64,000 nucleotides of DNA from positions 1 to 64,000 of the forward strand of contig NIVC01001263.1 in assembly GCA_002269645.1 (NCBI GenBank), in the 5' to 3' direction. How positions within the stretch are numbered: the first letter of the stretch is position 1; each line of letters begins with the position of its first letter. Below are positions 18,942 to 58,588 of the stretch, piece by piece. The DNA comes from Macrostomum lignano (lineage: Eukaryota). A model generated the notes under the pieces. It did no database searches. It was not told where the DNA came from and saw nothing but the letters and a program-made list of their open reading frames with translations. Both the position numbers and the translations under genes were made by a program.

Positions 18942-19727
18942 CTGGAGCCGCCAAGTGAGTCGTAGATTTAGAGCGCATGCGCGTGCGCAATCTTCTGTTT
19001 GCTTTGCGTGGGCAGCTCAGAGATTCTGTCTCGGAGGAGTAGGAAGACCGGCGCGACATTGATTTGCCCCAGCTGGTTCTTTCAAGGGGTCACAGCTGTG
19101 TGCACAATAGGATGGTGCAGCATTGTAGTCTCCCGATGCACAGTGCAAAATTGAAGTTAAAATACAAATAGAAGCTAGAATACTTCGTAAAAATTTAAAT
19201 CTCAGTGGGATTAGGTAAACATCTCAGTGGGATTATATGCACATCTCTACGCACTTTCCCGGTCCGCAGGTCCCAGCGTCCAGTCGTCTTCGGGCGCTTC
19301 GCCCGGCCCTGCCGGTTCCTCCACGAGCTCCGGCTCCGTCGGCGGCACCAAAACCTTCCAGGTGTACCTCAGCAGCAGTCCAGGCTCGCCTGGCGGGGCC
19401 CGCACCTACGCCTGCGTGCACTGCCGGGCCCACCTGGCCGCCCACGCCGACCTCATCAGCAAGAGCTTCCAGGGCAGCCAGGGCCGGGCCTACCTGTTCG
19501 ACCGGGTGGTCAACGTGACGGCCGGGCCAGCGGAGGACCGCCAGCTGCTCACGGGGCTGCACAGCGTGGCTGACATCCAGTGCCAGGGCTGCCGTACCGT
19601 CCTAGGCTGGAAGTACGAGCGCGCCTTTGAGAGCTCGCAGCGCTACAAGGAGGGCAAGTTCATCATCGAGCTAGCGCACCTCATCAAGGACAACGGCTGG
19701 GACTCGGATGAGCCCGAGGCGCTCTAA
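18942..19727 (+). CDS. YPEL: Yippee-like Zn-binding protein (YPEL1/2/3 type); start codon uncertain, candidate CUG at 18942
   Basis: 19270-19727 encodes KTFQVYL...[11 protein letters not shown]...[14 protein letters not shown]...[52 protein letters not shown], nearly identical to the YPEL consensus. Acceptor CAG ends at 19269; candidate donor AA|GTGAGT at 18955 gives a phase-1 join. The exon contains no Met. The 5' boundary is inferred. Confidence 0.9.
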
Positions 19728-28082: not shown

Positions 28083-29575
28083 TTTTTAAGGTAAAAATTT
28101 AAAATGATCAAAAATGCATAAGTTTTGTTGTTTTCTTTATATACATGAAACATTATACAAATATAGTTATTATTTTTAGTTTTCAACTTTATCTAATTGA
28201 AATTAAATATTAAAATCACTAGTCTAGTATTGTTACAAAATTTACAATTTGAAGCTTTGCATAAGTTAATATATTCAGCATACATTGGCATATGCCAAAA
28301 AAATTGGTCATTTTTTCTGGGGTACAAATAGACTATTCCAAACTATAGCTAAAGTAAAATGTAGGCTAATTGACTTTCTATATGCCATTCTTGTAAATCT
28401 CTAAGAACTTGGCCTTTAAAACCTAAGATCTCTTAGAACATATCTTTCACTCATCTCGACTGTGCCATAGAGTGACATATCTTTGATAAAAGCAATCTAA
28501 TTATTTTGCCACTTGTTTATTAAAGACATAAGAGAAAGAAAATAGAATAAACCATCCATCAAATTAACTCATATAGAGCAAAAGGCTTTTGTCAAAGTAG
28601 CCTCAAATATTTTACAAGATCAAAGAGTACAAATAAGATTAGGCTAATAAAATCTTTTTAATTTTCCATTTTTGTAAAATGTCTATCAGATAATAATTAT
28701 TTGATATAGTACTATTCAATTGTTTAGTATATATTTCAACATAGCAGATGAATTGGGTTTTATAAAAATGTTTAAAATGACCAACAAGATGTTAATTTTA
28801 TCCATTCCTAGGTTTCCTTTACTATTAATAATCTTTATCTTGGCATTTTATCTTATTTAGTACTTGGCTAGTTTTAAAGGATTACTACTGATTTTATACT
28901 TTGATAAAAAAAATTCTAGTTTTTTTGTAGGGTTTTTCCAAATTCAAAATTTTCCTATCTGTATCTTTATCTATATCTACAAAAGGTCCCATAGCCTATC
29001 TATATCCATATCATCCAAATTCATATCCATAATCCTATAATAGTAGGCTACAACTGATTTATCTTTTTTATTAATTATTTTGCATGATTAATGATTTCAA
29101 TATATATTAAAACATAGAAACAATTTATATTGGGTAAAATAGAAAGTTCTTGTGGTTTCCAAAAGTAAGCCTAAGTTAAGCCAAAGTTGAGAACTGTATG
29201 CCCAGCTGCTGGTCGGCGATGTTGGGGTGCAACCGGTAGAGACTGCTGGCTGATTTTTGTGTTTTTATAAAAAAGGTTATAAAACAGTAATGTCTGTCAA
29301 GGATTCAGGGTAAAGATGAAATACATACATGTATATTGAGCCATCTGCTAAAGTATATTTTCATACTAATACAATTTGTACATTTTCACTCATGCAATTG
29401 CATGCTTAGCAACTCTGGCGTCGGCAGCTGTGGCAGGCAACACAACCCACTGCGAATCTGAAAGCGTCTGGTTTGTCTTCCCATCTCTCCTCCCGATCCC
29501 ATTGACTGCCGTACCAAGGCTCCCTGGTCACTTGCTTCCCTACCAGCCCCAGCCAGCAGCTCGGCGGTCCAGTCA

Positions 29576-32500
29576 ATGCCGTCAGCTGTGAAAGACCAAA
29601 GTGGCCCAGGCGGCTTCCCAGTCATTGAGCTGTACCAGCTGGACAAGCGGAAATTCTTCCCGCTGTCAACTGTGGGCTCGCTGACTGTGCAGGTGGTGAC
29701 CTACCCGCTGACCCTGCTGCGCACCCGGCTGCAGCTGCAGGAGGGCCACAAAGTTTACAGGGGCCTTCTTCACTGCTTTCGGACTGTGCTGGGCCAGGAG
29801 GGCGTGCAAGGCCTTTACGCCGGATTTTGGGTCAAGAATTTTCAGGTGAGAATTCCAAGATTATCAAGTCAGTCCCGCTTTGCACCCTGTGTGTGTTGCT
29901 CGGGGCTCGGGGGTCAGCGGAGTTAGAATGATGACTTGTCTCCTCACTCACTGCAAGTCGGCTCTCATATCCTATTTTACAGCTAAGAATCCCAATCTCA
30001 CGACAAAGAATCCCCAATCTCACAGATAAGAATCCCAATCTTACAGCAGAGAATCCCAATCTCACAACAAAGAATCCAAATCTCACAGCTAGGAATCCCA
30101 ATCTCACAACAAAGAATCCAAATCTCAGCAACGAATCCCAATCTCATTTCAAAGAATCCCAATCTCACAGCTAAAAATCCCAATCTCACAGCTAAAAATC
30201 CCAAATCTCACAGCTAGCAATCCCAATCTCACATCAGAGAATCCCAATCTCTCAGCTAGGAATCTCAATCTCACAACAAAGAATCCCAATCTCATAATAA
30301 AGAATCGCAATCACAAAAATTAATCCCAATCTCACAGCTAGCAATCCCAATCTCACATCAGAGAATCCCACTCTCTCAGCTAGGAATCTCAATCTCACAA
30401 CAAAGAATCCCAATCTCATAATAAAGAATCGCAATCACAAAAATTAATCCCAATCTCACAGCTAGGAATCCCAATCTCACAGCTAGCAATCCCAATCTCA
30501 CATCAGAGAATCCCAATCTCTCAGCTAGGAATCTCAATCTCACAACAAAGAATCCCAATCTCATAATAAAGAATCGCAATCACAAAAATTAATCCCAATC
30601 TCACAGCTAGCAATCCCAATCTCACATCAGAGAATCCCACTCTCTCAGCTAGGAATCTCAATCTCACAACAAAGAATCCCAATCTCATAATAAAGAATCG
30701 CAATCACAAAAATTAATCCCAATCTCACAGCTAGGAATCCCAATCTCACAGCAAAGAATCCCAATTTCGCTGCTAGGAGTCTTCTTCTAAATCAATAAAA
30801 TTCGGCAGATTTCAGTATCGAATATTCAGATATTTTAAGCTCCTAAGCCCTCCCTACACAGAAACCCTATTCCCACTGACGCAGGTACTGAGCTCAGTCA
30901 TGTACGCCTACACCTACGAGCGAGTCCGCGAGGACACCCGCGGGATGTCGCCAACAATGCGCAGCTTCCTTGGCGGCGGCTGCGCCTCGCTGGTCTCCCA
31001 GACTGTGCTGGTCCCTCTGGACGTTGTCTCCCAGCACCTGCAGGTTTTGTCCCGGGCGCCAGGCGCCTCTTCGCGCACTCTGACGCCGATCTGCATCAGC
31101 GAGGCCGAAGCGAGCACCGCGCCAGGCCGCGCGCTTGCCGTGGTTCGCACCCTGTACAGGCGGAACGGCGTGGCTGCCTTCTACAAGGTAATTAATTTCA
31201 ATGCCTGTTGGACTTTGTAAATCCCGATTAGATTCTCTAGATTCCTGATCCCAATGTAAAAGTCCCAATCCTATTTTAAAGAGAACCAGACGTCAATGTA
31301 ATAATTCCAATGTCTAACATGATAATTTATGGCCCTATCCCTAATCCAGTTGACCCTGTCCCTAATCCAGTTGACCCTGTCCCTAATCTAATTGCCCCTA
31401 TCCCTAATCCAGTTGGCCCTATCCCTAATCCAGTTGAACCTATCCCTAATCTAATTGCCCCTATCCCTAATCCAGTTGACCCTGTCCCTAATCCAGTTGG
31501 CCCTATCCCTAATCCAGTTGGCCCTATCCCTAATCTAATTGCCCCTATCCCTAATCCAGTTGCCCCTATCCCTAATCCAATTGACCCTGTCCCTAATCCA
31601 GTTGACCCTGTCCCTAATCCAGTTGACCCTGTCCCTAATCCAGTTGGCCCTATCCCTAATCCAGTTGGCCCTATCCCTAATCTAATTGCCCCTATCCCTA
31701 ATCCAGTTGGCCCTATCCCTAATCCAGTTGACCCTGTCCCTAATCCAGTTGGCCCTATCCCTAATCCAGTTGGCCCTATCCCTAATCCAGTTGACCCTGT
31801 CCCTAATCCAGTTGACCCTGTCCCTAATCCAGTTGGCCCTATCCCTAATCCAGTTGGCCCTATCCCTAATCTAATTGCCCCTATCCCTAATCCAGTTGGC
31901 CCTATCCCTAATCCAGTTGAACCTATCCCTAATCTAATCGCCCCATCCCTTATCCAGTTGGCCCTATCCCTAATCCAGTTGAACCTATCCCTAATTTAAT
32001 TGCCTCATCCCTTATCCAGTTGGCCTCTACACCTAAGCTAATCCGAGAACCACTATCCGTAATCCAAGATCCCCGTTCCCCAATAAAAAATCCCTAATCT
32101 CAATCTTTAGTCTCGGAGTCCTGATCCCTAGTCTACATTCCGTGGTCAACCCTTTGCTCCAATTCCCACCAACCCAGGGCTACGTGATCTCCATCGCCCA
32201 CTTTGTGCCCAACTCGGCCCTGTGGTGGGCCTTCTACAACTTCTACTGCGACGCCATCGGCCGCGCCGCAGTCGCCCTGATGTCGGTCGGCCAGCCCGGC
32301 CCCCAGGACCCGCAGCAGCTGCCGCCCCGCCTGCCAGTCCAGCTGGCCTCCGCCCCCCTGTCTGGCATGTCATCCGGCCTCATCACCAACCCCATCGATG
32401 TGGTTCGAGTCCGCATGCAAGTGGAAGGCCTGGACCTGCCCTCCACTCTGCGCCGCCTGTGGACAGAGGAGGGCGCCGCCTTTGTGGTGAAAGGCCTCAG

Positions 32501-32609
32501 CGCCCGCCTGTTGCAGTCCTCGCTGTTCAGCTTCTTCATCATCTTGTCCTACGAGCCAATCAAGCGGTTCTCGCTGAAGGACGAGTACAAATCGTCCATT
32601 TCTTGGTGA
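29576..32609 (+). CDS. SLC25A44: Mitochondrial carrier SLC25A44-like, ~334 aa
   Basis: Exons 29576-29845, 30885-31187, 32178-32609 (GT-AG, phase 0). [78 protein letters not shown]: three carrier repeats matching the SLC25A44 pattern. Confidence 0.93.
29978..30770. repeat. ~21-bp minisatellite (aagaatcccaatctcacagct) with a ~145-bp higher-order repeat, SLC25A44 intron 1
   Basis: Identical artefactual ORFs recur at 30376 and 30521 (145-bp offset). Confidence 0.9.
31331..32030. repeat. 21-bp minisatellite (ccctatccctaatccagttgg), SLC25A44 intron 2
   Basis: Direct observation. Confidence 0.95.
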
Positions 32610-36440: not shown

Positions 36441-36891
36441 TCATTTAGGATACCAATTGTGTAGACACCTCTGTGACAGGCGGAATTCGCTGAAACGCAA
36501 ATTACAGTAGCTGACGCTCTCGTGTGTGTTCTCTGAATGATTTTCAGTATCGGCTACTCAGTTCTGCACTTCGGCTGGCATCGCGACTTCCGAATGCTCG
36601 AAAAGTAGTGCTACTTCAGGTGAATTTCATAGCTATGGCCTGCTCAGCTATGCAGTTTAGACTTCTTGATTGAGTTGGTACAGAGCTTGCTGCAATAGAA
36701 ACCGAAACGAAATTCATTTTGTGCTAAACATAGAGCAGCAGACTGTGCAATTCTGCAACACAATAGAGGCCGTGTACAGCTCGCAGAACATATTCTAGCA
36801 TTGTTACACTTTCTACAGACTATATAGGCATATGTTATAAGACTGCAGCAGAGCTCACGGGCTCCTTTAAACACGTATTCAGACATCTGGC

Positions 36892-38309
36892 ATGGCAACC
36901 AGAGGTCAGAAGCAATCGGATGAGCAGCGGCTGACGGAGCTGCACGACAAGCTGTCGCAGTCGAAGCGAGTCCTGGTGCTGACTGGTGCCGGGGTCAGCG
37001 CCGAGTCGGGCATCCCGACCTTCCGTGGCTCCACGGCCGGCAGCTGGCGCGGCTTCACCATCTCGGAGCTGGCCTGCCCGGAGGCCTTCCAGAGAAGCCC
37101 CAGCCAGGTGTGGGAGCTGTACCACTACCGGCGGGAGAAGTCGCTGGCCGCCAAGCCCAACCTCGCCCACGTGGCCATCGCCAAATTCGAGCAATTCTGC
37201 CTTAAGCGCGGCATCGACTTCATGCTGGCCACGCAGAACATCGACCGGCTGCACCAGCGGGCCGGCAGCAGCCGCGTTATCGAGCTGCACCGGAGCCTCT
37301 TCCTGGTGCGCTGCACCGCCTGCGACTCCGTGACTGAAAACTACGACAGCCCGATCTGCGAGGCACTGCGCGGCCGCGGCGACCCCAGCCCGCAGGCCGA
37401 CTCCACACCGATTCCCGAGGACCAGCTGCCCAGGTTACTGCTGACAATTATTTGCTGTCTGTCTGTCTGTCTGTATTAGAGAATACAATCCGGGATTTCA
37501 ATCACTCGAGATCCAAGAAATTCTAATTATCCCAGGATCCCAGGATCGACCATAGGGGATTCCGAAAATTGCCAATCCGGATAGTGCTGACTAGTTATTA
37601 ATAATTAGTAATTGCTAACTAACTTATTTTGTGCTTTGCACTCAATCCACTCAATTCATATTGGATCGGTCTCGTATTTGTAGCTATAAATATCAATTTA
37701 GCATTGCTAATTGACTAAAGAGAGAAGATTACTTGAGTACAATATCCCTAAAACACTAGCTGCTTTTGCTGAAATTGTTAAGGCAGGAAAAGCTTGGCCT
37801 TTCCAAGAATTTAAGTGCAGTGCAATGATTGCACGTTTTAATTCAATTTTTTTACATTTAGATTTCTTTGCGAAGCTTGTTTACAATTATAAAATGACTT
37901 TACAAATTATAATGTGATATGCGAGGCTGTGTGCGTACTCTGAAAATGAGTCTGAATTGTCCGGTTTCCACCACATCTTGCATATCAGATAGATCTCTGC
38001 CTGCCACCTTGCAGGTGCGCTGGCTGCTCTGGCCTGCTGCGCCCCTACGTGGTTTGGTTTGGCGAACCGCTAAACGAGGGCGAACTGAGCAGCGTGCAAG
38101 AGTTCGCCAACATGTCCGACTTCGTCCTGGTGGTTGGCACCAGCAACGCCGTCTACCCGGCCGCCATGATCGCCCCGGATGCGCGCAGGTCCGGCGCCCA
38201 GCTGGCCGAATTCAACCTGGACGCCAGCTGCAGCAGCAGCAACGACGTCAGCTACTTCGTTGCCGGGCCCTGCGGCTCCACTCTGCCCAAGGCCCTGCCC
38301 AGACTGTAG
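36892..38309 (+). CDS. SIRT5: NAD-dependent protein deacylase, class III sirtuin (SIRT5/CobB-like), ~278 aa
   Basis: Exons 36892-37433 and 38015-38309 (phase 2). GAGVSAESGIPTFRG, WELYHYRR (Tyr/Arg succinyl pocket), TQNIDRLH, CTAC...RCAGC zinc site, LRPYVVWFGE, VGTSNAVYPAA, EFN. Confidence 0.93.
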
Positions 38310-41568: not shown

Positions 41569-43557
41569 ATGCTTCTGTTAATTCCCGGTCTGGGCATCTG
41601 GATTGCTGCGGTTGTACATTTGTTAGCAACTGGTAAGTACATGTACTGACTACTTGAGTCTAGCTTTTCTTAGAAAACTAAACAGACTGAGCCGCAACTT
41701 CATCCAGACGTGACTGCCACCCCAACAACCTTGACGATCTCGAGCGGTCAGTTTCTGGAGCCTTCGGGACCGATCCAGCTGGAGGAGTCTGTCAGCTCCG
41801 TGATTGCCGAGACGGTGGTTTCCCTGCGTCTCAGCTGCTTTGTGATGTGCGCGCTGAGGCGCTGCGCCATTCTGGTGCTACGGTCGGGCGGGCTCTGCCA
41901 GCTGATCGTCGTCAACGATGCCTCGGCGACGGCGGGTCCACCTGACAGTCACGTGCCGCGGCTGGTGGGAGCGGAGCCAGGCGATCAGGTGTGGAAGGTG
42001 TCCGACCTGCAGAAGCTGCTAAATGACAGGAAATACGGAAACTTTGTCTTCAAAAGTAAGCGAACGTTTTAGCCGGTGCTGCATCCAGGGACCACTGGCA
42101 GTGGAAGGACGAAACGAGTCAGTGATGGAAATTTGCTTCTTGAGGGCCCAATTTTGCTTTAAAATGCAGTGAAATTCAGTGAGATGGAAACGTGATGTTT
42201 TACTGCACCCAGGGACCAGTAAATGAAAAAACACTTCAAAATTATGAAAGTTTGCTATAATAGGGCCCAATTTTGCTTCGAAATGGAAAAGTAACATTAA
42301 GAAGTCCAGTATTTTTTGCCACTAAATTGGCTGGCTACATCCTCACCTTCTGGGACTTCCGGTATGCGTATTGTAAGGTTGGTGCACGTGTGATCAATTT
42401 GTGATTTACTATACAAGTTTGCTAAAGAAATTTTGTGCCTTCTGCTCTGCGTAGCCTGCATAGCATCAACTGTGGTTTAATAGGATCTGCCAATACATAT
42501 TGGACCGGCTCAAAGAAACAAAGTCGACAATGCACTTCTGACCAAGCACATGTGGTGGCTTCTTTATATGATCTCGAAGTTCAAAGATTTGATTTTAATT
42601 GCAGATTCGAGCACAGGCCCCAACGGCACCATTCAGGCCCTGACGATCTCCCTAACCGGCTGCTATCGAATCGAGGCCTTCGGCGCCAAAGGCGGTACCT
42701 CAGCTCCGACAAGCTCAACGCCTCCGACTGTGACAGCCGGCGGCCTAGGGGCCTTCATGGCGGGAAGCTTCAACCTGACAGCCGGCACCCAGCTGGCCAT
42801 CGTGGTTGGCCAGCGGGGCGGCGACCCGTCGCAGGCGCACGAGAAAGCCGGAGCTGGCGGCGGCGGCGGAAGCTTCGTGTACGTCAGCACTGAGGTCGGC
42901 GACCAGCCGCTGATCATAGCTGGCGGCGGCGGCGGAGGGACCTTTGGGGATGTCGGTGAGCTGGACTGACTGCTAAGCTTATTGACTGCAAGATTAAGGC
43001 ATTGCAAAGTCAGCTGGGGCACTGCTAAATGGCCAAATGATGAAATGATTTTGCATCCGCTGAGCAGGTATTCCCGGCCAGAACGGAACCAGCGGCTCGG
43101 ACACGACGCCCTGCGGCTGCAACTCCCGCTTTTACGGTTTCGGCGGCACCAACGGCCAGCCGGGCATCGTGAACGTCGCCAACGCCTCCAGTGTCTATTA
43201 TTTCGGCGGCGCCGGCGCAGGCTGGCTCGGCCGCGCCCGGACAACCGGCGCTCCGTTGCCGACGGGGACGGCGGCGGCAGCCGCGGCGAGGCCTGGCTGG
43301 GCGGAGTGGCCGGCGTCCTCAACTCCGGCGGCAGCGGTGGCTTCGGCGGAGGCGGCGGCGGCGGCAACGCGTTTGGAGGCAGCGGCGGTGGCGGCGGCTT
43401 CAGCGGGGGCGGCGCCGGCCTGGCCAGCCACCAGCCGGGAGGCGGCGGCGGCTCGTATTGCCATGGCAACAACGGTTGCTATGGCGTCACCGGCGGAAAT
43501 CCGGAAGATCAAGGCAGGGTGGTCGTCCACTTTCTGTCCAAGGCCTCTTGCCACTGA
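41569..43557 (+). CDS. Secreted protein: signal peptide + PAN/apple-like domain + ALK/LTK-type glycine-rich domain, ~417 aa (needs +1 C at 43236-43238)
   Basis: Exons 41569-41632, 41708-42055, 42605-42955, 43068-43557, all phase 1, GT-AG. MLLLIPGLGIWIAAVVHLLAT; C..C....C.......C.L; YRIEAFGAKGG...GGLGA...FNLTAGTQLAIVVGQRG...GGGGGSFV...IIAGGGGG; GGFGGGG, GGGGGFSGG, GGGGGSY. One frameshift in a C3 run. Confidence 0.8.
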
Positions 43558-46849: not shown

Positions 46850-47677
46850 ATATATCTAATCATTCGAGCTTGTGTCTCATTGCGCAATGTCGTTAAAAAC
46901 TTTGCAGCGTAATCCATTCAGCAAATACAAAGTTTTTTATTAATCAGAGAATTACATGTAGTCAGGTGTTGCTTGCATATGCGATATCTTACATTAAAGT
47001 TCCAAGCTTGACAATTTCGAACAGGAGTGTAAATCGTTTCCTTTGAAAGAAATAAATGTAACAATTTGTAGATGCTCGAAAGACTAAATAATCACGGGAA
47101 AGAAATTTGAAATAGCTCGTAAAAACTGGTGTCTTTTTGTTTAAAATTTAGTTTTATATAATAGATACATGTAATACTAGCTCGTTACAAGTACAACTAC
47201 ATGTAAGTCGAGTGTATTTATTTTAGATGCATAACTTACTTTCCACCAATTAAGGAAGTAGTTATAAGTTTACTGAATAGTTGAATATTTGAAGCATTGA
47301 CGAATGAATGCATTGTTCAAAGCTGTACGTCCCGTAATTATATAAACTGCATGATTAATGGCCATGAAATGATGCATAGATTTATTGAGGAATTAAATAA
47401 TCAAACCAACGCTTTTTTCTATCAACGCAACCAAAATTTAAATATTAGGAACTCACTTTACAATCAAAAGCCAACGACCAATTGAAGTATATTGAATTTT
47501 TTGTCAATTTATTAATTCAAAATATTTAGGACAAATATTGAAGTATCTTTTCAGTCCTTTAGGTCTCTTCTTGTGATATTTTATGGAACCGTGCAAGATG
47601 CTTATTTAATCTGAAGTACGTACAACTTAAGCGGAAAATGCACCACCAAGATGGAAACATTTCATGTCTTTATTAAT

Positions 47678-48003
47678 CACAGATATACTAGAGTATAACT
47701 AGATGGGCCACTCAGGAATACATACTTAGCAAAACACTTTCTACTTTCAGTTCAGTTGCAATGAAGGATTACATATGGTATAATAAGAAAATAAAGGCGG
47801 CTGGATGACTTTGATAAGTTTAGAAGCCAAGCTTGGCAGACGTAAACAGCTTGCTAATTGGTTCAGCCATAATGTACATTAGCCACTGAAATGTACACGG
47901 CAGATTTAGGCTGGAACAACCGAGGAATACAAAAATGGTGGCGTGTGGCAAGGGGGTAGAAAAGTTCAGTGTGGTCGAGTTTGAGGGTTTAATTAAGCTA
48001 GGT
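47678..48003. mobile_element. Left half of a CACAGAT-family MITE split by the polB element (right half 58465-58588)
   Basis: Colinear with 34806-35251 up to gagggtttaa..gct; the remainder (taagagccaataaat...atatctgtg) resumes after the element. Confidence 0.85.
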
Positions 48004-48013
48004 GGGGGGGGGG

Positions 48014-48446
48014 ACTACGTATCGTGCAGTTAGAGCTGGGTTTTCAGATGTTTTGACGCAAAAACGCAAATTATACTACTATCTGAAAAATGAAGTAAGT
48101 AGTATACAAAAACGCTATCCTAAGCGTGATGTGGCAATATGTAGTCGTAATAATCCATGTGCTCATATATGTACATTAATTCCATGTTCAATAATCCCTA
48201 TCTATCTCAAAATGGATATGTACATTAATTCCATGTACATTAATCCCTAAATATCTCAAATTGGATATGTACATTAATTCCATGTACATTAATCCATATC
48301 CCAAATTGTCTATCCCCAATTCTATAGTACACTTACATTAATCTACAGTGTCATCCCCAGCGCGCGCGCACCAAAATTACATGTACAATGCTACATGTAC
48401 ACAGAGGTGAGAATTACTAATCTCATCTACTACCAAATGAGTCAAC
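48014..48446 (+). repeat. Left terminal inverted repeat (~430 bp)
   Basis: Near-identical to the reverse complement of 58062-58456 except a ~20-nt indel near 48094-48117 and divergence at the inner end. Confidence 0.95.
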
Positions 48447-48829
48447 TAACAGTGTAGCGCACATCATGTATAAGTATTTACAATGAAGATATATTTACAT
48501 TTAATCAGTAGCATATTACAGGAATCGAGACATGTACAGCATCACCAGCAAATAGAATATACAGAAAATTTTACATTGTTTTTCAATAATTTTCTCTTCA
48601 TAAATGATTTTAAACAGGTTTGACATGCAAAATATGTACAATAGATTTTTACATTGGCAATTTCGCCACACGCAATGCAAAAAATGTTTTATGTACATGA
48701 ATTATATATACAGCAAATAGATTCTGATAAATACAGCAGTATTACAATGCAAATTATGTACAATAAATAGATTTTACTAATTTAATATTGCAAAATGTAC
48801 ATTGAATTGTCAGTTATAATTGGATTACA

Positions 48830-51800
48830 TTATTTAAAGCCATAAGGCCTGCTGCAGGCCCCGTACACGCGCTTCGTCAGGACGCGCTGAAACGTCTTGT
48901 CCATACTAACAGTGTGTATGGTACAAGACGCCTTGTCGCGCCTAAACTGAAGCTGCGGCAGCTGCAGGGAGCCGCCGTGTAGTAGGGCACTGCGCAATTC
49001 ATCGCTGCGTTCCCGAATCTCCGGAGTCAGGCGGATGCCCTTGCATTTCAGGACCTGACTCCGGACACCGGCCGCATCCTCGACAATGTAAGTGTAGAGC
49101 TTGGGCCCTCCACTTACAAAGTCGGTCATCCGGCTGCCTGCGGACACCTCGTCGGTCCACATTCCGAGGCTCGTGCCATGGGGCGGCTCCCATTGGCCCT
49201 CGGAATGCCGGTAAACGACCCTGGGTGTGGGGGGAGAGAGATAATTACTTCCACATGCCAACTATTCAATTCTAAAAGAATTTTTCCAATGCAATACTTA
49301 CGAGTCAGTGTCGCAGTAAATGGCCCGTTCGCCGAGCCCCTCCAAGGCCTCGTACAGGCGCAGCCGGGCCTGCGTGGTTGTAAAGACTCCAATTGGCACA
49401 TTAGAGTACCGGAACGGCCGCTGATTAAAGTAGCGGTGCCGGTACTCTAGCAGTATAAACTCGCTGCCAATCGGCTCGCAGGCCTTGACTTTGAGGTTGG
49501 GGTCGGTCAGCCGGGCGAGCCAGTCCTCGTAGCTGGATACAATTTCGGTCGATGTCAGGTCGTCACGCTGACAAAATTTGCCCCAGAGCCTGTGTGTTGT
49601 GAAAAGAAGTGCTACTATTAGTAGAAGAAGAAAATCGTTTTAAAAACAGAATTTATAATTACTTACGAATTCAAAAAGATTTTCGCTACCAAGCGAAGTC
49701 CTGGGTTGGGCTCGACCTTGTCCAGCGTGACGCCCTCCTTTGCAAAGAAATCGGCAATGTAGGCGGCCTTGTCTTCATCCGACATGCCGGGGGAGCCGCT
49801 CGACTCAGCCTTCAGCTTGAGGAAGGTGCTAACATAGTCACTGAACAGGCCGGTCCGCTTCTCTGTCCAGTAGGCTAGCGCGTGCACCACCTGCAGCCGG
49901 TAGCCCAACTGGAAGGCCTTCCGCAGCTCCGGCGTTGCCCAGGTACCAGTCAGTGCCCGCTGCTCGTCTGAGTGGTCACAATCGTCGCCACACTGCTGCT
50001 CCATACAGGTGCGGCAAAGCCCAAAAAAGAGCTTCTTTTGCACTCTGTACGGCAGCAGCGGAATGTGCAAATTTGACGGCGGCAACACAGTCACTTTGGC
50101 AATACCAAAGTAACTAGCCAGCGCGTCAGAATCTAGCACTTGCGGCGTCGGATGCTGCACCGGGTGGCCAATCGGGTACGGGTCCTTTGACTGCACCGTC
50201 GGGTACAGAGAGACCTGCCAGTTGAAATAAAACATTATTTTCATAAACTGTATTTTTGCAAAATATTCTACTATATTAGTAGTATCACTACTCACCACAT
50301 CCCGATATTTGAGAGTCTCAGTCTCGCTGGCCACAGCATGCGGGATAAAACACTCTACGCGGCCGCCGTAGAGCGCATCCTCCATCTTGAGCGGAGCGCG
50401 CAGATGTGCAGTTGCGGCAATGAAATCGGCCTGCGACGCCAATACAGTGTCGTATTCGTGCTCCCAAATGACTCGAACACTGTAATTGTGCCGCTCCAAC
50501 TCGCGAGTGAACCACTCGGTCTCGTGGCGGATATGGCTCAGAGGCTGCCGTTTGAGCGGGTGGACAGCATCCTGATCAGGCATGCACTGCTCGCAGCCAT
50601 GGTAGAAACATCCATGAAACTGCAAGACAGTGTTGCTCGCCTCATCAAAACCATCCACCTTGCGGCCGAGAATGACAGCCTCGCCGCCAGTAGAGTCGCA
50701 CGTGCGCAGCCGCCCGCCAAATTCGGTGGCATTCAAATAAGTCAGCCACTTGCGCGCCTTGAACGATTGCTGGTCAGCCTGCCGGGCAATCACGCCGACC
50801 GAGTTGGGCTCCATAAACCGGGTGGTGAAAACGGCCATTGCCAAACTGGCAATCGTATTGGCCTGAACAAATGGTTCCAGGCCGTCGCAAATTTCACCAA
50901 TTATTGCCCTGTACTTGATGCAGCCCTCGCGAAGCAGGACTGTGTCGCTCAAACAATAATCGAGATATTCCCGATTAAAGTTGAACAACTCGCCCTGTCG
51001 CGAGGCTAGCCAAGCACAGATTGAGTCATAGTCCTTGTTTGCTTTGCCGCCATAATACTCAATGGCCGGGTAGGAGCCCACGTAGTTCCAATTAGCCGGC
51101 TTGTTGAACTCGTGGGGAAACGTCCCCTTGGCCAGCTTTGTGTCAGCGAGCCCCAGCGCTTTTGGGAATTGCGCAAGCGGGATTGGTATAAAATTTAACG
51201 AATCTTTAAATACCAATTTATCCACCGTCATGCACATTAGCCGGCTGCCCTGGAACAGCACTTGGGGCCGCTTCTTGGCCAGGCCGTTGAGCAGAGCGCC
51301 AAGCAATAAAAACGAATCGTAGCCTGATGCGTTGTGCGCTACAACAATGGCGCCGCCTCGGAATGTGGTGCTCAGCCAGGTGAAAAACGCATTCAGCGAG
51401 GCAGGGCCCACAGCCACAAAATCGGCCATTTGGCAGGCGCAGTCTGAGTGGCTGACGCAATTGGAGAATTCCTTCCCCAGATCGCGGCCAGTCAGACAAT
51501 TGGCGGCGCTATGCAGGCCATTGCAGAGGCGGCAAGTCTCGCGCGGAAATGCCCGGCCGGAGCAGGTCTCGCAGCACGTGACGGCAGTCACCAGATGCAC
51601 GTGATGCTGCTTCTCATCATCCGTGTACGTTTCCGTATCGTAGAACACGTACGGCATAGTTGAAGCTTTCACTTTGGGAGCCTTGACGAAGCACAAATGC
51701 GAGCCGGCCTCGTCGTACTGTTTACACAGCGGGCACTTGACGTGGCCGCATTTGTGCTCCGGCTCCCTTTGGCCGACCTTTAGCTCCTCGCAATACCCGC

Positions 51801-53039
51801 AATTGGGGCAGACACGGGTTGAGCTGCAGCGTGACCGCCCCGCCCGGTTCTTTTGGCGGTGGTTGTCGAAGCACTGCTGATTGTAGCACTTGAGGCCACA
51901 ATCAGCGCAGCGTTTGTAGTCACGCTGCAGGCTTTTGCAGTCGGTGCCGGGCACTTTGCACTGAGGGCAGGTGTTGGCACACTTGTGTTCTCCAGACACG
52001 CAGTCGTACGGCTGCTGGCAGCGGTCGCAGTAGCGGCGGGCACCGAAAAATGACGGCACCTTGCACACCGCGTTAAAGTGCTCGCCAATTAGGTGCAAAT
52101 TCAGCACTTCGCGGCCGGGCAGGGCGTACACACACGTATTGCCCTCCTCTGCGCTGTATACCCGGACGCCGAAATCTCGGCCGGGCGACTGGGCGTTCAG
52201 GACCGCGAGCAGTTGGGGGAGCACGTCAACCCCGAAAGGCCCGGCCTGTGCAATGGTTGATAAAGACTAAAACATTTGTATATTAATAAAAATGCAAATT
52301 AAAATGTGCAAGAATATTTTTACTCACCGAATACAATTTGGCGGCAATCTGAAGCTCCCCAGTCAGCTTCTTCTGCATTGGGGAGTCGGCCTTGATCGTT
52401 TGCCACGTGTTCTTAGTGATGACCTTAGCCTCCAGATCTGCGAAAGCCTTGGCCACCACCAGCGCCCTGATGAGGCAACGTTTGTCGCTGTTGGCGATGA
52501 CGACGTAGTTGCGGCCTGTCGAATGCCTGGACTGGATGTGGCGCTCCGCCGCATCTAGGCTGCCGCAGCCGCCCCGCGGGACCCAGGCCTTGTCAAAAAC
52601 AATTTAAAGTTGTTGCCCAAGACGCTGGAGTCCGACTGCAGCACCTTGTTTATATGCTTGAAAACAAGCTCTGCAGTGAAGCGGCTGCGGCGGACGGGTG
52701 GGACATTGATGGTCAACATCATATTGTCCGCCGTCAGCTTAGCTGCGACGAAATCATCTGCGTGCAAGTCACTGCAGAGTGCCGAAATTATATCCGCAAA
52801 CGTGGCGCGAATATCGGTAGTACTCGTATTTGTGAAGGCTACTTCATACTCACACCCTTTTGCCTTAAATTTTGGCAGGGCCTTTGCCCCGCCAAGACGC
52901 GCAATAAAGCCTAAAAAAAATTTGGGGTTTGAAATTAGAATTGCGAGAGGCGGCGGCAGGTGTATGACTCATAAAATCAACTCCTTACCATCGCCTTCGA
53001 CAGTGTCGGGCTGGGGCGGGGGTTGAAATTGAGCCAAAT
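48830..53039 (-). CDS. polB: Protein-primed family B DNA polymerase (Polinton-type), >=1270 aa, intron-containing; 5' exon unresolved; one frameshift
   Basis: Exons (minus strand): 53039-52989, 52910-52328 (needs +1 nt in the A5 run at 52594-52598), 52245-50296, 50214-49667, 49589-49302, 49220-48830. The phases fit only when spliced. Exo I FYDTET, Exo II HNASGYD, Exo III YCLSD, motif A DV|VSLYP, motif B KIFLNS|LWGKF, motif C YCDTDS|, then GPKLY, KCKG, KR..PYG. Confidence 0.95.
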
Positions 53040-53975
53040 CTGCAATAAAAATGTGCATGGTGACTAAAATTCTGACCGCTTGGAATTTTACAACTGTCAA
53101 AAATTTTTGATTGATTGCCTGCAGCAGCAGCAATTTTATCGCCCCACCCCAAGCAACAAAAATCGGCGAGTTGTAAAAACCCCAACTCGGCACGTTCCGA
53201 CACGTAGCAACAAAAGAAATGTGGGGTTGATTGACCCCCGCTTCGAATTTTAGGCTGTCAAAAATGTTTGATTGATGACCCTGATAACACAGATCCTGCC
53301 GCAGCAGCCATTGTAAAACCCCTATCAGCACGTGCCTCCATTGTGCCTCCTTGACACCTAGCAACAATACTGCGCGGCCGCTTTTGGATTTTAAAGCTGT
53401 CTGATTAATAACCCTCACCGTAGCAGCCATTGCTGCCAAAACCCCATACAATTGCAGCGGTGATTACATCATCATGCCCAAAAATCGGGGGGTTGATTTA
53501 ATCACTGCGCCGCTAGAATACCTGCCGCCGTGGTGATTACATCATCATGCTGAGCCCAAAAATCGGGGGGGTTGATTTTATCACTGCCGCTTGCCCGCCC
53601 CCCGCTGAGTCACGCGCGCGCCGCAGGATTGCTGTTTTTGCTTCTCTAGTCACATAACCCCTGAAATTTTATGACTATCCTCTACAGGCATTATCTGGCT
53701 ATACTGCTTCTGCGACTATTCTCTAAAACTCTGTTATTTCAACAGGCCTGAATTTGAGAAATCCAACTTCAACATCTATGTCAAGAGGAAATTCAGAAAT
53801 TTTAACCCAAAATGAATGTTAAAGATGAAAAGCTGTGGCTTCAAAGAAAGCCCATATTTCAACAAGCGTGTAGTTTGCAAATCCCACAAATGCTAAAGCA
53901 ATTATACAGCCCTATTTTTCTGAATTTAGATTTTGCAACTGCTAAAAGCATAGTTTTACGCGCGCAGAGACTCAC

Positions 53976-54239
53976 CTAGCGGGCGTCCTCTCTTTGCGGC
54001 CGGAGGCTGATGCTGATGCTGGTGTGATTGTGGCTGCTGCTGCTGCTGTGGTGTGTGTGTGTCTTCGGCTGGGCGGGTTCCCTCATTGCACCCACTCAGG
54101 GTGCGTGCACTTCAGGAACCCTAGCACCTAGCTGCTGTGGTTGCTGCTGCTGCTGTGGTTGCTGCTGCTGCCTGGATGGGCCGGCCTGCCCCCACAATGC
54201 CGATATGGCCGCTTCCGCAGCAGAGCGCTTCGATGCCAT
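53976..54239 (-). CDS. Candidate first exon of polB (MASKRSAA...polyQ...PPAAKRGRPL), needing a further -1 correction near 54113
   Basis: ATG 54239 lies ~90 nt downstream of a minus-strand TATA; strong donor CTAG|GTGAGT at 53975 is phase 1, matching the exon starting at 53039; NLS-like AKRGRP. The two halves are in different frames. Confidence 0.4.
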
Positions 54240-54326
54240 TTCGATGGGATGGTAGATGGTTGTTGATGCTGCTGATGCTGGTGCGATTGTGGCTGCTGCG
54301 GAAGCGGCGGTGATGCTCCTACAATC

Positions 54327-54606
54327 TCCTTTATATACCCCTGCAGGAAGGGGATGCTGCAAAAGCAGAGAGCGCGTGTGCATTATTTCTCTTTCCCCTG
54401 AACTGCATTTGCAAATTAGTGTACACTCAGACCCCAACTTGGTATAGAAAAGATGGGGTCTGAAAATACCCCATCATTTGCGTTCTCATACGGATTGTAA
54501 TTGGATGTGAGTGCATCTAACCAACCGGTAGTGCTGTAGGAACGAAAAATGCAGCCCGCAGCCTCACCTCCTCAGAGTACAGTTGCTTTCGCGGGTATAT
54601 AAAGGA
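54327..54606. promoter_or_regulatory. Divergent promoter with two identical 14-bp GGGTATATAAAGGA TATA motifs facing outward
   Basis: Minus-strand copy 54327-54340, plus-strand copy 54593-54606, each ~90 nt upstream of an ATG (54239 minus, 54694 plus). Confidence 0.75.
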
Positions 54607-54693
54607 CCATGCTGCTGAGAGATTTTTCAGAATTCTCGCTCGCTCGCTCCGACACTCTTTGCAACAGCTCTATCTCCGTGAAACTCTGTCAAA

Positions 54694-55500
54694 ATGTCTA
54701 TTCCACTTGTTGACAACTATGTGGTGCGCAAGCCCACATTCGATACTGATCGAGAACTGATTGAGATTCGGCGTTTCTACACTGACAAGAACGGCAACTA
54801 CAAGCACGGTTTCCCCGGTGTGTTTCTGACTCGCATCGAGTGGCAGCATCTCAAACGGGCGTGGCCGATTATTGAGTCTCTGCACGTCCTCGACTCTCGT
54901 CATAAGCGGTTTCAACTGGGTGAGAGCGGCCGCAAGATTCTGGAAGTGAAAAACAGCCAGATTTGGCTGCATCGCATCAACCCGGCCGGCTGCGATGAGG
55001 GCGAGCGTTGGAAATATTCCATCAAGTTCACCCCTGAATTGTGGACTGCTCTGATGGATGCTGACGTTGATTCGCTGTTTGCCTCGCAGTCGCCGCCGCC
55101 GCCCAAGACGGCTTCGGAGCCATCATCGCGGTTCAACAGCTGCAGCAGCAGCAATGATGGTGACGGCAATGGCAGCCGCCGCCGCAGTGCTGGCACCCCG
55201 CCACCGATTGAAATGCAGCCGCAGGTGAAGAAGCTTTCTACGACTGACGGCGGCAGCGGCAGCGGCAGCGGCTACAAGTGGTGGCACTCGTATCCCCCGG
55301 ACTCGACTGAGCTCGAGAGCTGGGCTGCTGGCCTTACTGATGAACAGCTTTTCAAGACCCCGGCCCATCAGATTGGGCCCCACGAGCCGGCCTTTGCTGC
55401 CTGGGCCGCTGTGATCAAGGAGCAGAACAAGCGAATTAAGCTAATCTACAGCAGCGACAAGGCCAAACTGCAGCAGCTGCCTACAATGCGTGTCGAGTGA
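54694..55500 (+). CDS. PC4/p15-like ssDNA-binding protein with probably two PC4 repeats and a low-complexity tail, 268 aa
   Basis: LIEIRRFYTDKNGNYKHGFPGVFLTRIEWQHLK resembles the PC4 core IDIREYW....GE.KPG.KGISL..EQW..LK; second degenerate unit FQLG...SIKFTPELWTAL. Confidence 0.75.
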   Translation: MSIPLVDNYVVRKPTFDTDRELIEIRRFYTDKNGNYKHGFPGVFLTRIEWQHLKRAWPIIESLHVLDSRHKRFQLGESGRKILEVKNSQIWLHRINPAGCDEGERWKYSIKFTPELWTALMDADVDSLFASQSPPPPKTASEPSSRFNSCSSSNDGDGNGSRRRSAGTPPPIEMQPQVKKLSTTDGGSGSGSGYKWWHSYPPDSTELESWAAGLTDEQLFKTPAHQIGPHEPAFAAWAAVIKEQNKRIKLIYSSDKAKLQQLPTMRVE

Positions 55501-55644
55501 AAATGATTAAGACAATTGCTAAAAAGACTCTTTTTGTGTGGGCTGTATGCTTTTTGTGTGTGAATATTCATATTCGTAATGTGTGGGTTGTATAATCATT
55601 GCTTTTGTGGGAATATATGGTTTGTATAATAATAACTCTACTGT

Positions 55645-55895
55645 AGAACCTTGTTTATGTGCTTGAAAACAAGCTCTGCAGTGAAGCGGCTGCGGCGCGG
55701 ACGGGCGGCACGTTAATAGTGAGCAACATGTTGTTGGCCGTTAGTTTGGCTGAGATGAAATCGTTAGCGTGCAGGTCAGCGCAGAGGGTTGTTATTATTT
55801 TCGCAAATGTGTCTCGACATCGACAATATCCGCTGTGAAGGCAACTTCATATTCGTAGCCTTTTGCTTTAAATTTTGGCAGGGCCTTTGATGCTG
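55645..55895 (-). pseudogene. Frameshifted paralogous fragment of the polB N-terminal exon
   Basis: Aligns to ~52640-52885 in the same orientation: KALPKFKAKGYEYEVAFT...LCADLHANDFISAKLTANNMLLTINVPPVR..SRFTAELVFKHINKVLQ*. Confidence 0.85.
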
Positions 55896-56278
55896 ATTAA
55901 CTCTCAATTGTATAATTTTTACTTGTGGGAATTTGTGTTTCTGCGATTATATCAACTCTAATAATGTGAAAAGCATCTTTTGAATAAACTGGCACTGACA
56001 ATAACATCTCTGGAATAAAAATGGTCTTATTTCATTTGTTTTGAAATTGAAAATAACCGAGACTTTGAAAATTTTATTATTAAAACAGACATAGCTAGCT
56101 GTTGAGTCAGACCAACTCGCTGGCGGGGCTGGGCTGGTGTTTGGGCAGAGTTGCTTGCTTGCAGGCTGGCGGAGCCAATGGGAGGCCTCACAAAATCACT
56201 ATAAAAACGAGACCCCTGCGAGACTGAAAATTTGTGATCAAACTCATCTACTCACCTACTCGCCTAAACTTGATTACC

Positions 56279-57043
56279 ATGAACAGCGACCGCATCAACA
56301 GCAGCAGCAGTAGCATCAGTGTTGAAGACGAGCCGCCGCAGTTAGTTGCGGTGGCGGTAGCCCTGCGTTGCGGCAAAACCCCTTCAATCCTATGGTGCGG
56401 GGTTGGGGGTGGCCGAGTAGGTCGTAACCTGTCACATCGTTATATCACCCGACCGGTTTTAAGCCTGTCAAACAAATCTGGCAGCAACGACAGCGACAGC
56501 AGCAGCAGCAACGACCGTCAGGCCACGAGACATCAACCCTCTGGCTCTGAAATCAGCAGCAGCAGCAATCACAGCAGCAGCAGTAGTAGCAGCAGTCACA
56601 TCAACAGCAGCCGCAGCGACAGCAGCAGTATGAAGCCGAAGAAGAAGAAGAGCAGCCGCTTAGGTATTAATTTGGCCCCTCGGATGGGGCTGCATAGTGC
56701 GGTTGCTGCTAGTGAAAAGGCTGCCACTGCTGACGAGGCCGCATACCAAGAATTTTTGCGGCAATGGCGCCGCGAGCCCGACTTGGACATGGTAAATAAT
56801 TGCATTTTATCCGAAAACTTTTCATTTTGCAACTAATTGCTGATTCAAAATTTCAATGCATTATAGCGGGAAACTTTTCCCACCCATTCCCTTTTCTAGC
56901 TAGCAGACTATTGTTTTGGCACCCCCTCTGAAGAGAGAGCGTATTACACGGCGGTGAAGGAGCGGCAGGTGTATGAGGCTGATTTACATTATGAAACAGC
57001 CGCAGAATTGGACAGCCTGTTCCCCGGCTCGGGGCTGTGTTGA
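56279..57043 (+). CDS. Orphan two-exon gene in the element, Ser-rich with a KPKKKK NLS-like motif, ~218 aa
   Basis: Exons 56279-56791 and 56900-57043 (ATG|GTAAAT...TTTTCTAG|, 108-nt intron, phase 0, second exon open for 47 codons); TATAAAA at ~56200. Confidence 0.55.
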
Positions 57044-57374
57044 CATTTTAATGTTGTGTCTGCACGCATTTTTATTTTCATGCACCTTGTACATATCTTG
57101 TTTTTATCAAGTGTTGTGTCTGCACTCAATCTAAATTTTCATGCACCCATAGTATATATCTCAACTTGCTATAAATGTTGTGTATGCACACTTACGTTAT
57201 CCACATGCACATTCTTTTCAAATAAATTGTTTTGCAAAATTTAAATATTGCGTTGAGATTTTTACCATTTTTTCGAGTAATGATATTTAGAATGAAAAAC
57301 TATAAACCATTCCGTGTGAAAACACTGTGACTGATTATAACCGCAAACTCACCAATTCCAGCTACGTCATCATC

Positions 57375-57836
57375 ATGGCTGCTTTAAAGGTGTCGCTGCT
57401 GACTGAAGGTGCTCGCCCGCCGGCTCGCCAGACAATCGGTTCTGTTGGCTACGATCTCTTTGCCTCTGAGGATGCTGTTGTCTGGGCCGGGTCGGTTGCG
57501 CAGGTGCCTCTCGGAATTTCAATCCAACCGCCTGATGGGACCTACGCTCGGATTGCCGGCCGGTCTGGGCTGGCGTTGCGCAAGTCTATACAAGTGGGCG
57601 CCGGCGTGATCGACCCTGACTATACTGGAGAATTGACTGTGGTGATATTTAATCATGGCAGTGCGGACTGGTTCATAACTCGGGGCTACCGTATCCCTCA
57701 AATAGTTTTGGAGCGTGTAATGATTGCTCCCGTAGTTGTAAGGGATCTCTATAGAGGGAATGGCGATGAGGAGGTTGCTTCCAGCAGCCGCTCAATTCGC
57801 GGTGCAGGAGGGTTTGGTAGTACAGGCTATAATTAA
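57375..57836 (+). CDS. dut: Trimeric dUTP pyrophosphatase, 153 aa
   Basis: All five motifs present: VGYDL, GRSGLA, GVIDPDYTGE, RIPQ, RGAGGFGSTG. Confidence 0.96.
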   Translation: MAALKVSLLTEGARPPARQTIGSVGYDLFASEDAVVWAGSVAQVPLGISIQPPDGTYARIAGRSGLALRKSIQVGAGVIDPDYTGELTVVIFNHGSADWFITRGYRIPQIVLERVMIAPVVVRDLYRGNGDEEVASSSRSIRGAGGFGSTGYN

Positions 57837-58061
57837 GTCTCAACTTGCTGTTGTCTCCTTACTGTTTTTGCTCTCTTTTTCAATTATTGAAATGAAAATA
57901 TACGCTTTTCCAATGTGAAAACTATATGAATACAGTCTTTTTCAATAGAATCTTGATTTGTTACTCTACTAAAGGTAGTAGTGTAATCAGCTACATGTAG
58001 GTTTTGAATAATTGACATATAAATAGGAATATGTATATAACGTGGTTTTTAAAACTTGAAT

Positions 58062-58456
58062 GTTGACTCATTTGGATGAGATTGTAGATGTAGTAGGGTT
58101 TCGAGTTGTAATTTTGGTGTGCGCGCGCTGGGGATGACACTGTAGATTAATACACATGTACATATAGAATTGGGGATAGACAATTTGGGATATGGATTAA
58201 TGTACATGGAATTAATGTACATATCCAATTTGAGATATTTAGGGATTAATGTACATGGAATTAATGTACATATCCATTTTGAGATAGATAGGGATTATTG
58301 AACATGGAATCATGTACATATATGAGCACATGGATTATTACGACTACATATTGCCACATCACGCTTAGGAAGGATTCATTTTTCAGATAGTAGTATAATT
58401 TGCGTTTTTTGCGTCAAAACATCTGAAAACCCAGCTCTAACTGCACGATACGTAGT
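58062..58456 (-). repeat. Right terminal inverted repeat (~395 bp)
   Basis: See left TIR. Confidence 0.95.
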
Positions 58457-58464
58457 GGGGGGGG

Positions 58465-58588
58465 CAAGACATAAGAGCCAATAAATAGGCCTTGTCTTCA
58501 AAAATACATTAAAATGCAACTGAACTGAAAGTACCTCTCACGCAAATTTTCTGAATGGCCCATATCATAGTTATTCTAGATATCTGTG
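58465..58588. mobile_element. Right half of the split CACAGAT-family MITE
   Basis: Matches ~35125-35251, including the right TIR. Confidence 0.8.

Follow-up and report, generated by a model that had tools for sequence, protein, structure and literature searches.

How can an element with the ends and the polymerase of a Polinton recur in an animal genome without an integrase of its own? The question is raised by positions 48014-58456 (10,443 bp) of a 64,000-nucleotide stretch of Macrostomum lignano DNA (contig NIVC01001263.1 of assembly GCA_002269645.1, positions 1 to 64,000 of the forward strand; hereafter the window). Between its terminal inverted repeats (TIRs) this element carries a polB gene, encoding a protein-primed DNA polymerase (pPolB), and a right arm with genes for a PC4-like protein, an orphan and a dUTPase. 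We conclude that it is neither an autonomous Polinton nor an independent replicon, and that it acts like the replication half of a Polinton. It probably belongs to a set of long-established, helper-dependent and self-replicating Polinton derivatives that are integrated in trans, in effect a Polinton satellite; as part of this reading, its lineage would have lost the virion module and the integrase while keeping the replication gene.

A recurrent element in two families

The TIRs, described in the original prediction as intact and about 400 bp long, agree at 342 of 348 aligned bases with small indels besides, or at 96% over 389 aligned bases in a laxer alignment, which makes the figure of 400 bp approximately correct. 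The genome matches a 26-base TIR motif at 178 places, against none for the reversed control; the first 100 of these yield 30 facing pairs (family A) with a median span of 9.4 kb: 16 lie at 9-11 kb, ten are shorter and four longer, among the latter an 18-kb pair (C200) enlarged by retroelement and satellite insertions. A second family, B, has a distinct TIR and is represented by 15 pairs from 40 of 331 candidates, 12 of them at 9.27-10.1 kb. The layout is thus no one-off: 30 A pairs and 15 B pairs recur, with a typical size near 9.5 kb, and the element does not align to a resident full Polinton as its mere deletion product, so that this refutation named with the original prediction does not hold. 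A genome search with polB gave 99 rows (93 scored of 174 candidates), none of them an intronless polB; once seven second pieces are set aside, the rows divide into 38 A-like and 54 B-like ones.

In eight further polB-bearing A copies, the left arm is about 90-95% identical to that of the window copy, and none of them matches window positions 54,600-57,800. Their right arm is non-coding, the frame being kept in only 3/21, 4/29 and 4/22 gaps between copies; on this ground, and with nothing found by Pfam, it was also rejected as a spliced integrase. The PC4-orphan-dUTPase arm of the window recurs on 12 other contigs (among the best 40 of 153 matches), and C157:54,556-64,414 is, by its coordinates, a second TIR-to-TIR copy with the layout of the window. 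So family A comprises a type I (polB, PC4, orphan and dUTPase) and a type II (polB only). In family B, copy C307 has ACTACT...AGTAGT ends, a 6-bp duplication, a spliced polB, an orphan and a divergent PC4 (50% identical to that of the window), with no dUTPase; a divergent PC4 lies 2-4.5 kb upstream in 44 of the 54 B polB rows. Thus, the polymerase, single-stranded-DNA-binding protein and dUTPase, suspected of forming a replication kit, are not a conserved unit: the B copy is without dUTPase and all eight other polB-bearing A copies are without the entire arm. Between the two families, polB exon 3 is 64% identical and saturated at synonymous sites, and the four polB intron positions are the same; the layout, introns, PC4 and orphan common to both indicate that the minimal layout is older than the split between them.

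Type I and type II copies of A, the latter with non-coding filler of about 3 kb, share with B and several palindromic derivatives (see below) a unit length of about 9.4-9.9 kb, which may reflect a constraint imposed by packaging or by replication. Several A and B copies or fragments lie within tens of kb of each other on C157, C471, C513, C1176 and C1753, which are possibly Polinton graveyards or loci resembling PIWI-interacting RNA (piRNA) clusters. At C1485:44,228-62,496 (L048, L049) a polB-bearing A copy is nested inside a palindromic A-ended element; at C362:496,181-525,280 a forward TIR motif and three reverse ones at 9.86-kb spacing suggest a tandem array or concatemer; and at C1944:70,583-76,996 a 5.7-kb B-ended element adjoins a Polinton-type integrase match and is probably inserted into a full element.

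Absence of virion genes and integrase

Pfam searches of 140 stop-to-stop frames of at least 45 amino acids, 56 from the window element and 84 from the copies L037, L051 and L052, recovered no integrase, capsid, ATPase, protease or helicase family and no segregation or maintenance gene. Likewise, the integrase, ATPase and putative capsid protein of the Polinton-like virus L056 gave no tblastn match on the element at E<=1, whereas its polB matched related copies strongly. Once annotated, the element has no coding room left for virion genes. The reported lack of capsid, penton, integrase, ATPase and protease is therefore borne out, and the hidden spliced capsid or integrase gene that was named as a potential refutation was not found in the frames of the element or of related copies.

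The same holds for the families at large: integrase matches (best 150 of 578 candidates) fall inside none of 35 A and 15 B TIR pairs, and capsid matches (126 of 195 candidates scored) occur neither inside the 30 A pairs nor within 25 kb of any listed A TIR motif. Such genes exist elsewhere in the genome, which holds 73 jelly-roll capsid matches in the same scan, intronless polB frames of 1000-1480 amino acids, and plentiful integrases (150 scored matches to a Polinton-like query, mostly stand-alone frames of about 350-390 amino acids). A Pox_A32 search, with no match among the best 150 of 375 candidates, is too insensitive to use given the capsid matches; the best 150 of 4300 rve candidates looked like long-terminal-repeat retrotransposon frames and are uninformative.

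A polymerase gene with predicted introns, under purifying selection

The minus-strand polymerase gene matches DNA_pol_B_2 (PF03175) with E 3e-28. Its identification as a pPolB thus stands, with the correction that it is spliced and that the frame of the window copy is broken. Four AT-rich GT-AG introns of 77-82 nt are predicted, three of which fall within the catalytic motifs A, B and C; when joined, the exons between 52591 and 48833 read as 1146 stop-free codons. The 81-nt intron upstream of exon 4 is in frame, so that it was missed by a reader of open reading frames. A fifth, long intron would join these exons to a putative first exon, whose splice donor is uncertain in the window, while in family B polB a matching MAKRS start is followed by a GT donor. 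Among the runs presumed to be RNA, 15 listed joints (of 69) include no splice joint; in run X17 one contig covers 49301-49589, matching predicted exon 5 with a single shared base added, which hints weakly at splicing.

The predicted protein appears to have a terminal protein-vOTU-exonuclease-palm order, with candidate vOTU Cys and His, VSR-like, exonuclease and polymerase motifs. This layout matches that given in the accessible portion of PMC11161782, after which the exon 2 domain names were assigned by motif and position, and the VSR-like motif matches what Jeong et al. (10.1101/2023.08.22.554363, as excerpted) describe as the VSR-bearing pPolB2 group.

As judged by codon comparison, polB is under purifying selection: over the roughly 649 codons of exon 3 the window copy and seven A copies give dN/dS of 0.065-0.104 and dS of 0.16-0.23 (Nei-Gojobori), the seven pairs being non-independent as all include the window sequence. 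The seven are all type II, and the selection thus spans the split between types I and II, making self-replication likely. The frame of the window copy breaks near 52,600, where 7/7 compared copies differ from it; exon 2 lies in a single open frame in 2 of 7 other copies by a crude exact-motif test that may under-count. With its frame broken, the window copy itself probably needs polB supplied by another copy.

Among UniRef sequences the matches to polB that are 95-98% identical are labelled Macrostomum lignano. Of the best 150 library matches 11 are at least 60% identical (the six looked up are all labelled M. lignano) and the other 139 are at most 40% identical; among outside relatives with a name, the closest are animal proteins, 28-36% identical (Nematostella, Xenopus, Photinus, Gigantopelta). 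Scans of viral contigs with polB alone or with alignment A1 found no relative, alignment A2 found five distant loci at 34-45%, and a search of a phage collection gave no match.

Presumed footprints of replication, and fold-back derivatives

Two kinds of genomic traces bear on how the element is copied. In 11 of 12 copies the two ends agree exactly over the variable first 40 bases of the TIR, as against 12 of 264 comparisons between copies. Further, each of the eight polB-less A TIR pairs fetched is a fold-back palindrome, 6.4-9.9 kb long and with 92-99.9% identity between its arms, and six of these, scanned for a frame of 130 amino acids, have none. Seven of the eight show direct 6-bp duplications, for which reason, together with their non-inverted flanks, an assembly artefact is rejected in these cases; the eighth, C1580, has inverted flanks and may be one. 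In C566 the TIR reaches 928 bp and copies the 3' end of polB. Homogenised ends, palindromes and this extended TIR would all be explained by protein-primed strand displacement with panhandle formation. The repair of adenovirus ends provides a precedent for panhandle-based end copying, and the fold-back derivatives resemble snap-back defective genomes.

Fold-back forms may not be confined to the polB-less pairs. At C2132:148,774-156,901 and C2539:49,150-57,252 the dUTPase arm occurs twice in inverted orientation, as in probable fold-back derivatives of type I. Inverted PC4 or integrase pairs 10-12 kb apart on C2301, C3189 and C664 suggest that integrase-bearing Polintons also give rise to such forms.

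Probable integration by an enzyme from elsewhere

A direct 6-bp duplication flanks 14 of the 15 A copies for which both flanks were read, and the one B copy; C1580 has none. Two of the 14 A sites are in simple repeats and two repeat the site of another copy, leaving ten independent informative sites. Six-base duplications define intact vertebrate Mavericks in the available part of PMC8097293. The presumed duplication of the window copy itself is uninformative alone because it lies in a homopolymer, so that the evidence comes from the other copies. Inverted flanks (47677-47760 and about 58514-58588) belong to a high-copy repeat resembling a MITE (miniature inverted-repeat transposable element) that the element interrupts at a G-run, and a DNA contig (run X2) links 47889 to 58472 via the G-run, as expected of an insertion-free copy of the MITE. 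The end motifs are ACTACG in family A and ACTACT in family B, both families having 5'-ACTAC...GTAGT-3' termini; these ACTAC(T/G)...(A/C)GTAGT ends are the reverse complement of the common Polinton AGTAGT...ACTACT.

The 6-bp duplications are the mark of a Polinton-type integrase, and as the element has none of its own the enzyme must come from elsewhere. Their presence in 15 of 16 copies thus argues against an independent replicon. The original prediction had set mobilisation in trans against minimal self-replication; each part probably holds and it is the opposition between them that falls. An integrase-bearing family is present in the genome as 16.7-16.8-kb TIR pairs on C530, C1021 and C1860, with PC4 beside the integrase. 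More generally, distant PC4 homologues, 32-37% identical, have an integrase 0.9-2 kb downstream in 53 of 64 rows, the typed integrase rows being only the 53 on contigs with such a PC4. Since PC4 adjoins integrases in full elements, it is ancestral Polinton cargo, inherited from integrase-bearing Polintons and not a special acquisition of the present element.

A mechanistic interpretation and its alternatives

Under the satellite interpretation, an integrated copy would be transcribed by host RNA polymerase II and its transcripts spliced, as the TATA boxes and conserved GT-AG introns suggest. The pPolB polyprotein, with its terminal protein, vOTU protease, exonuclease, VSR-like insert and palm, would then give its own protein primer, as indicated by the motifs and the literature. 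A released copy would be copied from both ends by protein-primed strand displacement, with displaced strands forming panhandles through their TIRs; the footprints of this step, homogenised ends and palindromes, are observed, and the intermediates are postulated from them. Finally, the Polinton-type DDE integrase of another element would insert the copy and create the 6-bp duplication, which is seen at the insertion sites, with the other element as presumed enzyme source. PC4 and dUTPase would serve as optional helpers, and the polB-less palindromes would form a third, fully parasitic tier. The bolder form of this proposal, in which these are undescribed animal nuclear replicons, intron-bearing Polinton satellites existing as protein-capped linear DNA that hijack full Polintons for integration and perhaps packaging and are themselves parasitised by giant palindromes, is advanced tentatively and with some reservation.

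Several points weigh against the satellite interpretation. The mapped integrase-bearing family starts with GTAGTAGG (28 of 40 alignments begin at that base), not with ACTAC, and its TIR has nothing in common with that of A or B; being the sole mapped integrase family, it thus tells against a simple helper with a shared TIR. The absence of integrase and capsid rests on 100 of the 178 A motif matches and 40 of the 331 B candidates, and long A pairs of 12.1, 14.4 and 23.6 kb fall outside the set read. In principle, the selection on polB could have acted in unseen full-length masters. The families are, moreover, known from assembled contigs.

The element might alternatively live mainly as a nuclear linear plasmid, a free protein-capped DNA maintained by its own polB, with the chromosomal copies as side products captured by an integrase. 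The self-sufficient replication gene under purifying selection, the free intermediates required by end homogenisation and fold-back forms, and the descent of cytoplasmic linear plasmids from Polintons that lost the virion module (PMC11161782, in the text available) all accord with this; we nonetheless judge it unlikely, as precise ends and 6-bp duplications in 15 of the 16 copies read speak of regular enzymatic integration, the frames scanned hold no segregation or maintenance gene, and dozens of integrated copies are enough to explain persistence. Persistence as one segment of a bipartite Polinton-like virus, the integrase and capsid being on a second segment with the same ends, is very unlikely. 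It gains from the 73 capsid matches in the genome, from a unit of about 9.5 kb that is kept even with a non-coding right arm and could reflect packaging, and from the common termini of bidnavirus segments (PMC8502044, partial text). Yet the candidates for such a second segment, the polB-less A pairs, all proved to be palindromes in the eight cases fetched, the six scanned having no frame of 130 amino acids, no capsid match (126 of 195 candidates scored) lies within 25 kb of a listed A TIR motif and no integrase match (best 150 of 578 candidates) lies within the 50 pairs.

Still less probably, the element is merely a resident full Polinton with an internal deletion, amplified passively in the manner of a large MITE and carrying polB along as a passenger. 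Non-autonomous capsid-less elements such as Polinton-1N1_DR and Polinton-2N1_DR are indeed known (Table S1 of PMC4028283), the window polB is broken and the type-II arm is non-coding, yet this explanation is already largely refuted by a dN/dS of about 0.08, by the same minimal layout in two families with saturated synonymous sites, by the lack of intronless polB in the 99 rows in a genome where intronless frames of 1000-1480 amino acids exist, by PC4 being only 32-37% identical to the integrase-linked ones, and by the gap between 60% and 40% identity among the best library matches to polB. Hardly credible, lastly, is an autonomous element whose integrase has gone unrecognised in the orphan or in a polB domain such as the VSR-like nuclease. 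The orphan is directly downstream of PC4, the place of the integrase in full elements, and its spliced motif is kept between A and B. This common part amounts to only about 50-60 residues, however, the rest being of low complexity, with no match in Pfam and no convincing one in the Atlas; VSR-like inserts are found, too, in Polintons that have an integrase (Jeong et al., 10.1101/2023.08.22.554363, from the parts available), and 6-bp duplications are the product of Polinton integrases.

Relationship to known systems

With Polintons/Mavericks of the pPolB2 type the present families share a pPolB with predicted vOTU Cys/His and VSR-like motifs, long TIRs and 6-bp duplications; they differ in that no integrase, capsid, penton, ATPase or protease was found, in a size of about 9.5 kb as against 13-25 kb, and in predicted spliceosomal introns in polB, intact vertebrate Mavericks being intronless in the accessible text of PMC8097293. 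Their AC-starting ends also depart from the usual 5'-AGT/AG, for which that text gives the swamp eel as an AC-starting exception. Capsid-less, non-autonomous and polB-less Polintons are already known: nine Polintons without the major capsid protein, protease and ATPase are listed in section 4 and Table S1 of PMC4028283, including Polinton-1N1_DR (15.5 kb) and Polinton-2N1_DR (11.1 kb). The present element is like these in the joint loss of the virion module and in reduced size. Both N1 Polintons, we take it, depend on helpers, as it probably does. The table in PMC4028283 scores neither polB nor integrase; here, the state with polB kept and no integrase found is common to two old families, and polB is under selection. 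The polB-less insect Polintons in the part of the Pannagram preprint available show the opposite loss. With Polinton-type ends and duplications and no integrase of its own found, the element is probably a non-autonomous Polinton derivative.

The pGKL-type cytoplasmic linear plasmids of yeast are similarly derived from Polintons, with morphogenetic genes lost, a terminal protein-vOTU-exonuclease-palm polymerase and TIRs (PMC11161782, in part). The present element differs in being chromosomal with target duplications, and its TATA boxes and introns point to nuclear expression, unlike that of the cytoplasmic plasmids. The latter carry their own RNA polymerase, of which the element has none. Transpovirons and other satellite replicons are also small linear elements with TIRs that keep a replication protein and need a larger virus-like partner. 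The transpovirons, though, have a Tlr1-like polymerase-helicase without exonuclease and ride giant viruses (PMC11161782, same portion), whereas the polB studied here keeps predicted exonuclease motifs and an endogenous Polinton would act as the partner. In the available parts of the literature, excluding Repbase and most subscription papers, we found described neither Macrostomum Polintons nor spliced families that keep polB and lack an integrase.

To our knowledge, models of Polinton replication derive from sequence, and direct evidence is scarce. M. lignano can be cultured and takes RNA interference, and two genomic footprints of protein-primed strand displacement in such an animal make the replication model testable. 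The route of reduction is the opposite of the usual MITE route, in that the polymerase is kept and the integrase dropped, and the conservation of the introns is the mark of a long, non-viral existence in the nucleus. Should there be a free form, it would be an animal nuclear analogue of linear plasmids; if the bolder form of the satellite interpretation is true, one animal genome would hold a three-tier chain of parasites, and the step that leads from Polintons to linear plasmids would have a counterpart in the nucleus.

Right-arm genes and other features of the window

Table 1. Features of the element and its flanks in the window.
Feature	Position	Strand	Basis or remark
G-run, left flank	48004..48013	.	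Carries left copy of presumed 6-bp target duplication
Left TIR, 5' start ACTACGTA	48014..48381	+	TIR alignment; 26-base motif genome search
pPolB last exon, C-terminal palm/thumb region and stop	48830..49220	-	Frame runs on across splice at DTD/S motif
pPolB exon 5, motif B to motif C	49302..49589	-	Junctions IFLN/SLWGKF and CDTD/SVV
pPolB exon 4, motif A to motif B	49667..50214	-	Junction YRDV/VSLYP
pPolB exon 3, putative vOTU His motif, Cys-rich region, exonuclease motifs I-III, VSR-like insert	50296..52245	-	Pfam, splicing, motifs
pPolB exon 2, terminal-protein-like region, putative vOTU Cys motif	52328..52910	-	Frame broken
Putative pPolB first exon, MASKRS... start	53976..54239	-	TATA box about 90 nt upstream
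PC4-like single-stranded-DNA-binding protein, low-complexity tail	54694..55500	+	Pfam PF02229, E 1e-5
Diverged relic duplicate of polB exon 2 (52635-52886)	55640..55889	-	250 bp, 79%
Spliced orphan gene, exons 56279-56791 and 56900-57043	56279..57043	+	Low-complexity N-terminal part
dUTPase, accessory	57375..57836	+	Pfam, E 2e-28
Right TIR, 3' end TACGTAGT	58107..58456	-	TIR alignment
G-run, right flank	58457..58464	.	Right copy of presumed target duplication; flanks are host MITE

The features are collected in Table 1. All four genes of the element have a TATA box within about 100 nt upstream. Pfam confirms the PC4-like and dUTPase genes of the original prediction; the orphan gene is also present, with the correction that it consists of two spliced exons. 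In an Atlas search the PC4-like protein has PC4 as its first match (0.91, 197 shared features); a word-seeded search with the PC4 domain gave no candidate, which is not evidence of absence. The orphan matches no Pfam family above the cut-off, with only a low-complexity SR-25 match below it, and an Atlas search with part of the B orphan returned unnamed clusters at 0.91 with few shared features, counted as no result. Its short C-terminal motif is common to family B and spans the same splice. The best relatives of the dUTPase are 44-55% identical and of mixed origin.

Elsewhere in the window, positions 10702-12802 hold a 2.1-kb fold-back-like element with 455-nt arms at 98% identity and internal 151-nt repeats. 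Pieces of host genes, namely Yippee/Mis18 (19215-19727), a mitochondrial carrier (29462-32609), Sir2 (36871-37479) and an ALK/LTK glycine-rich domain (42484-42969), lie amid many minisatellites.

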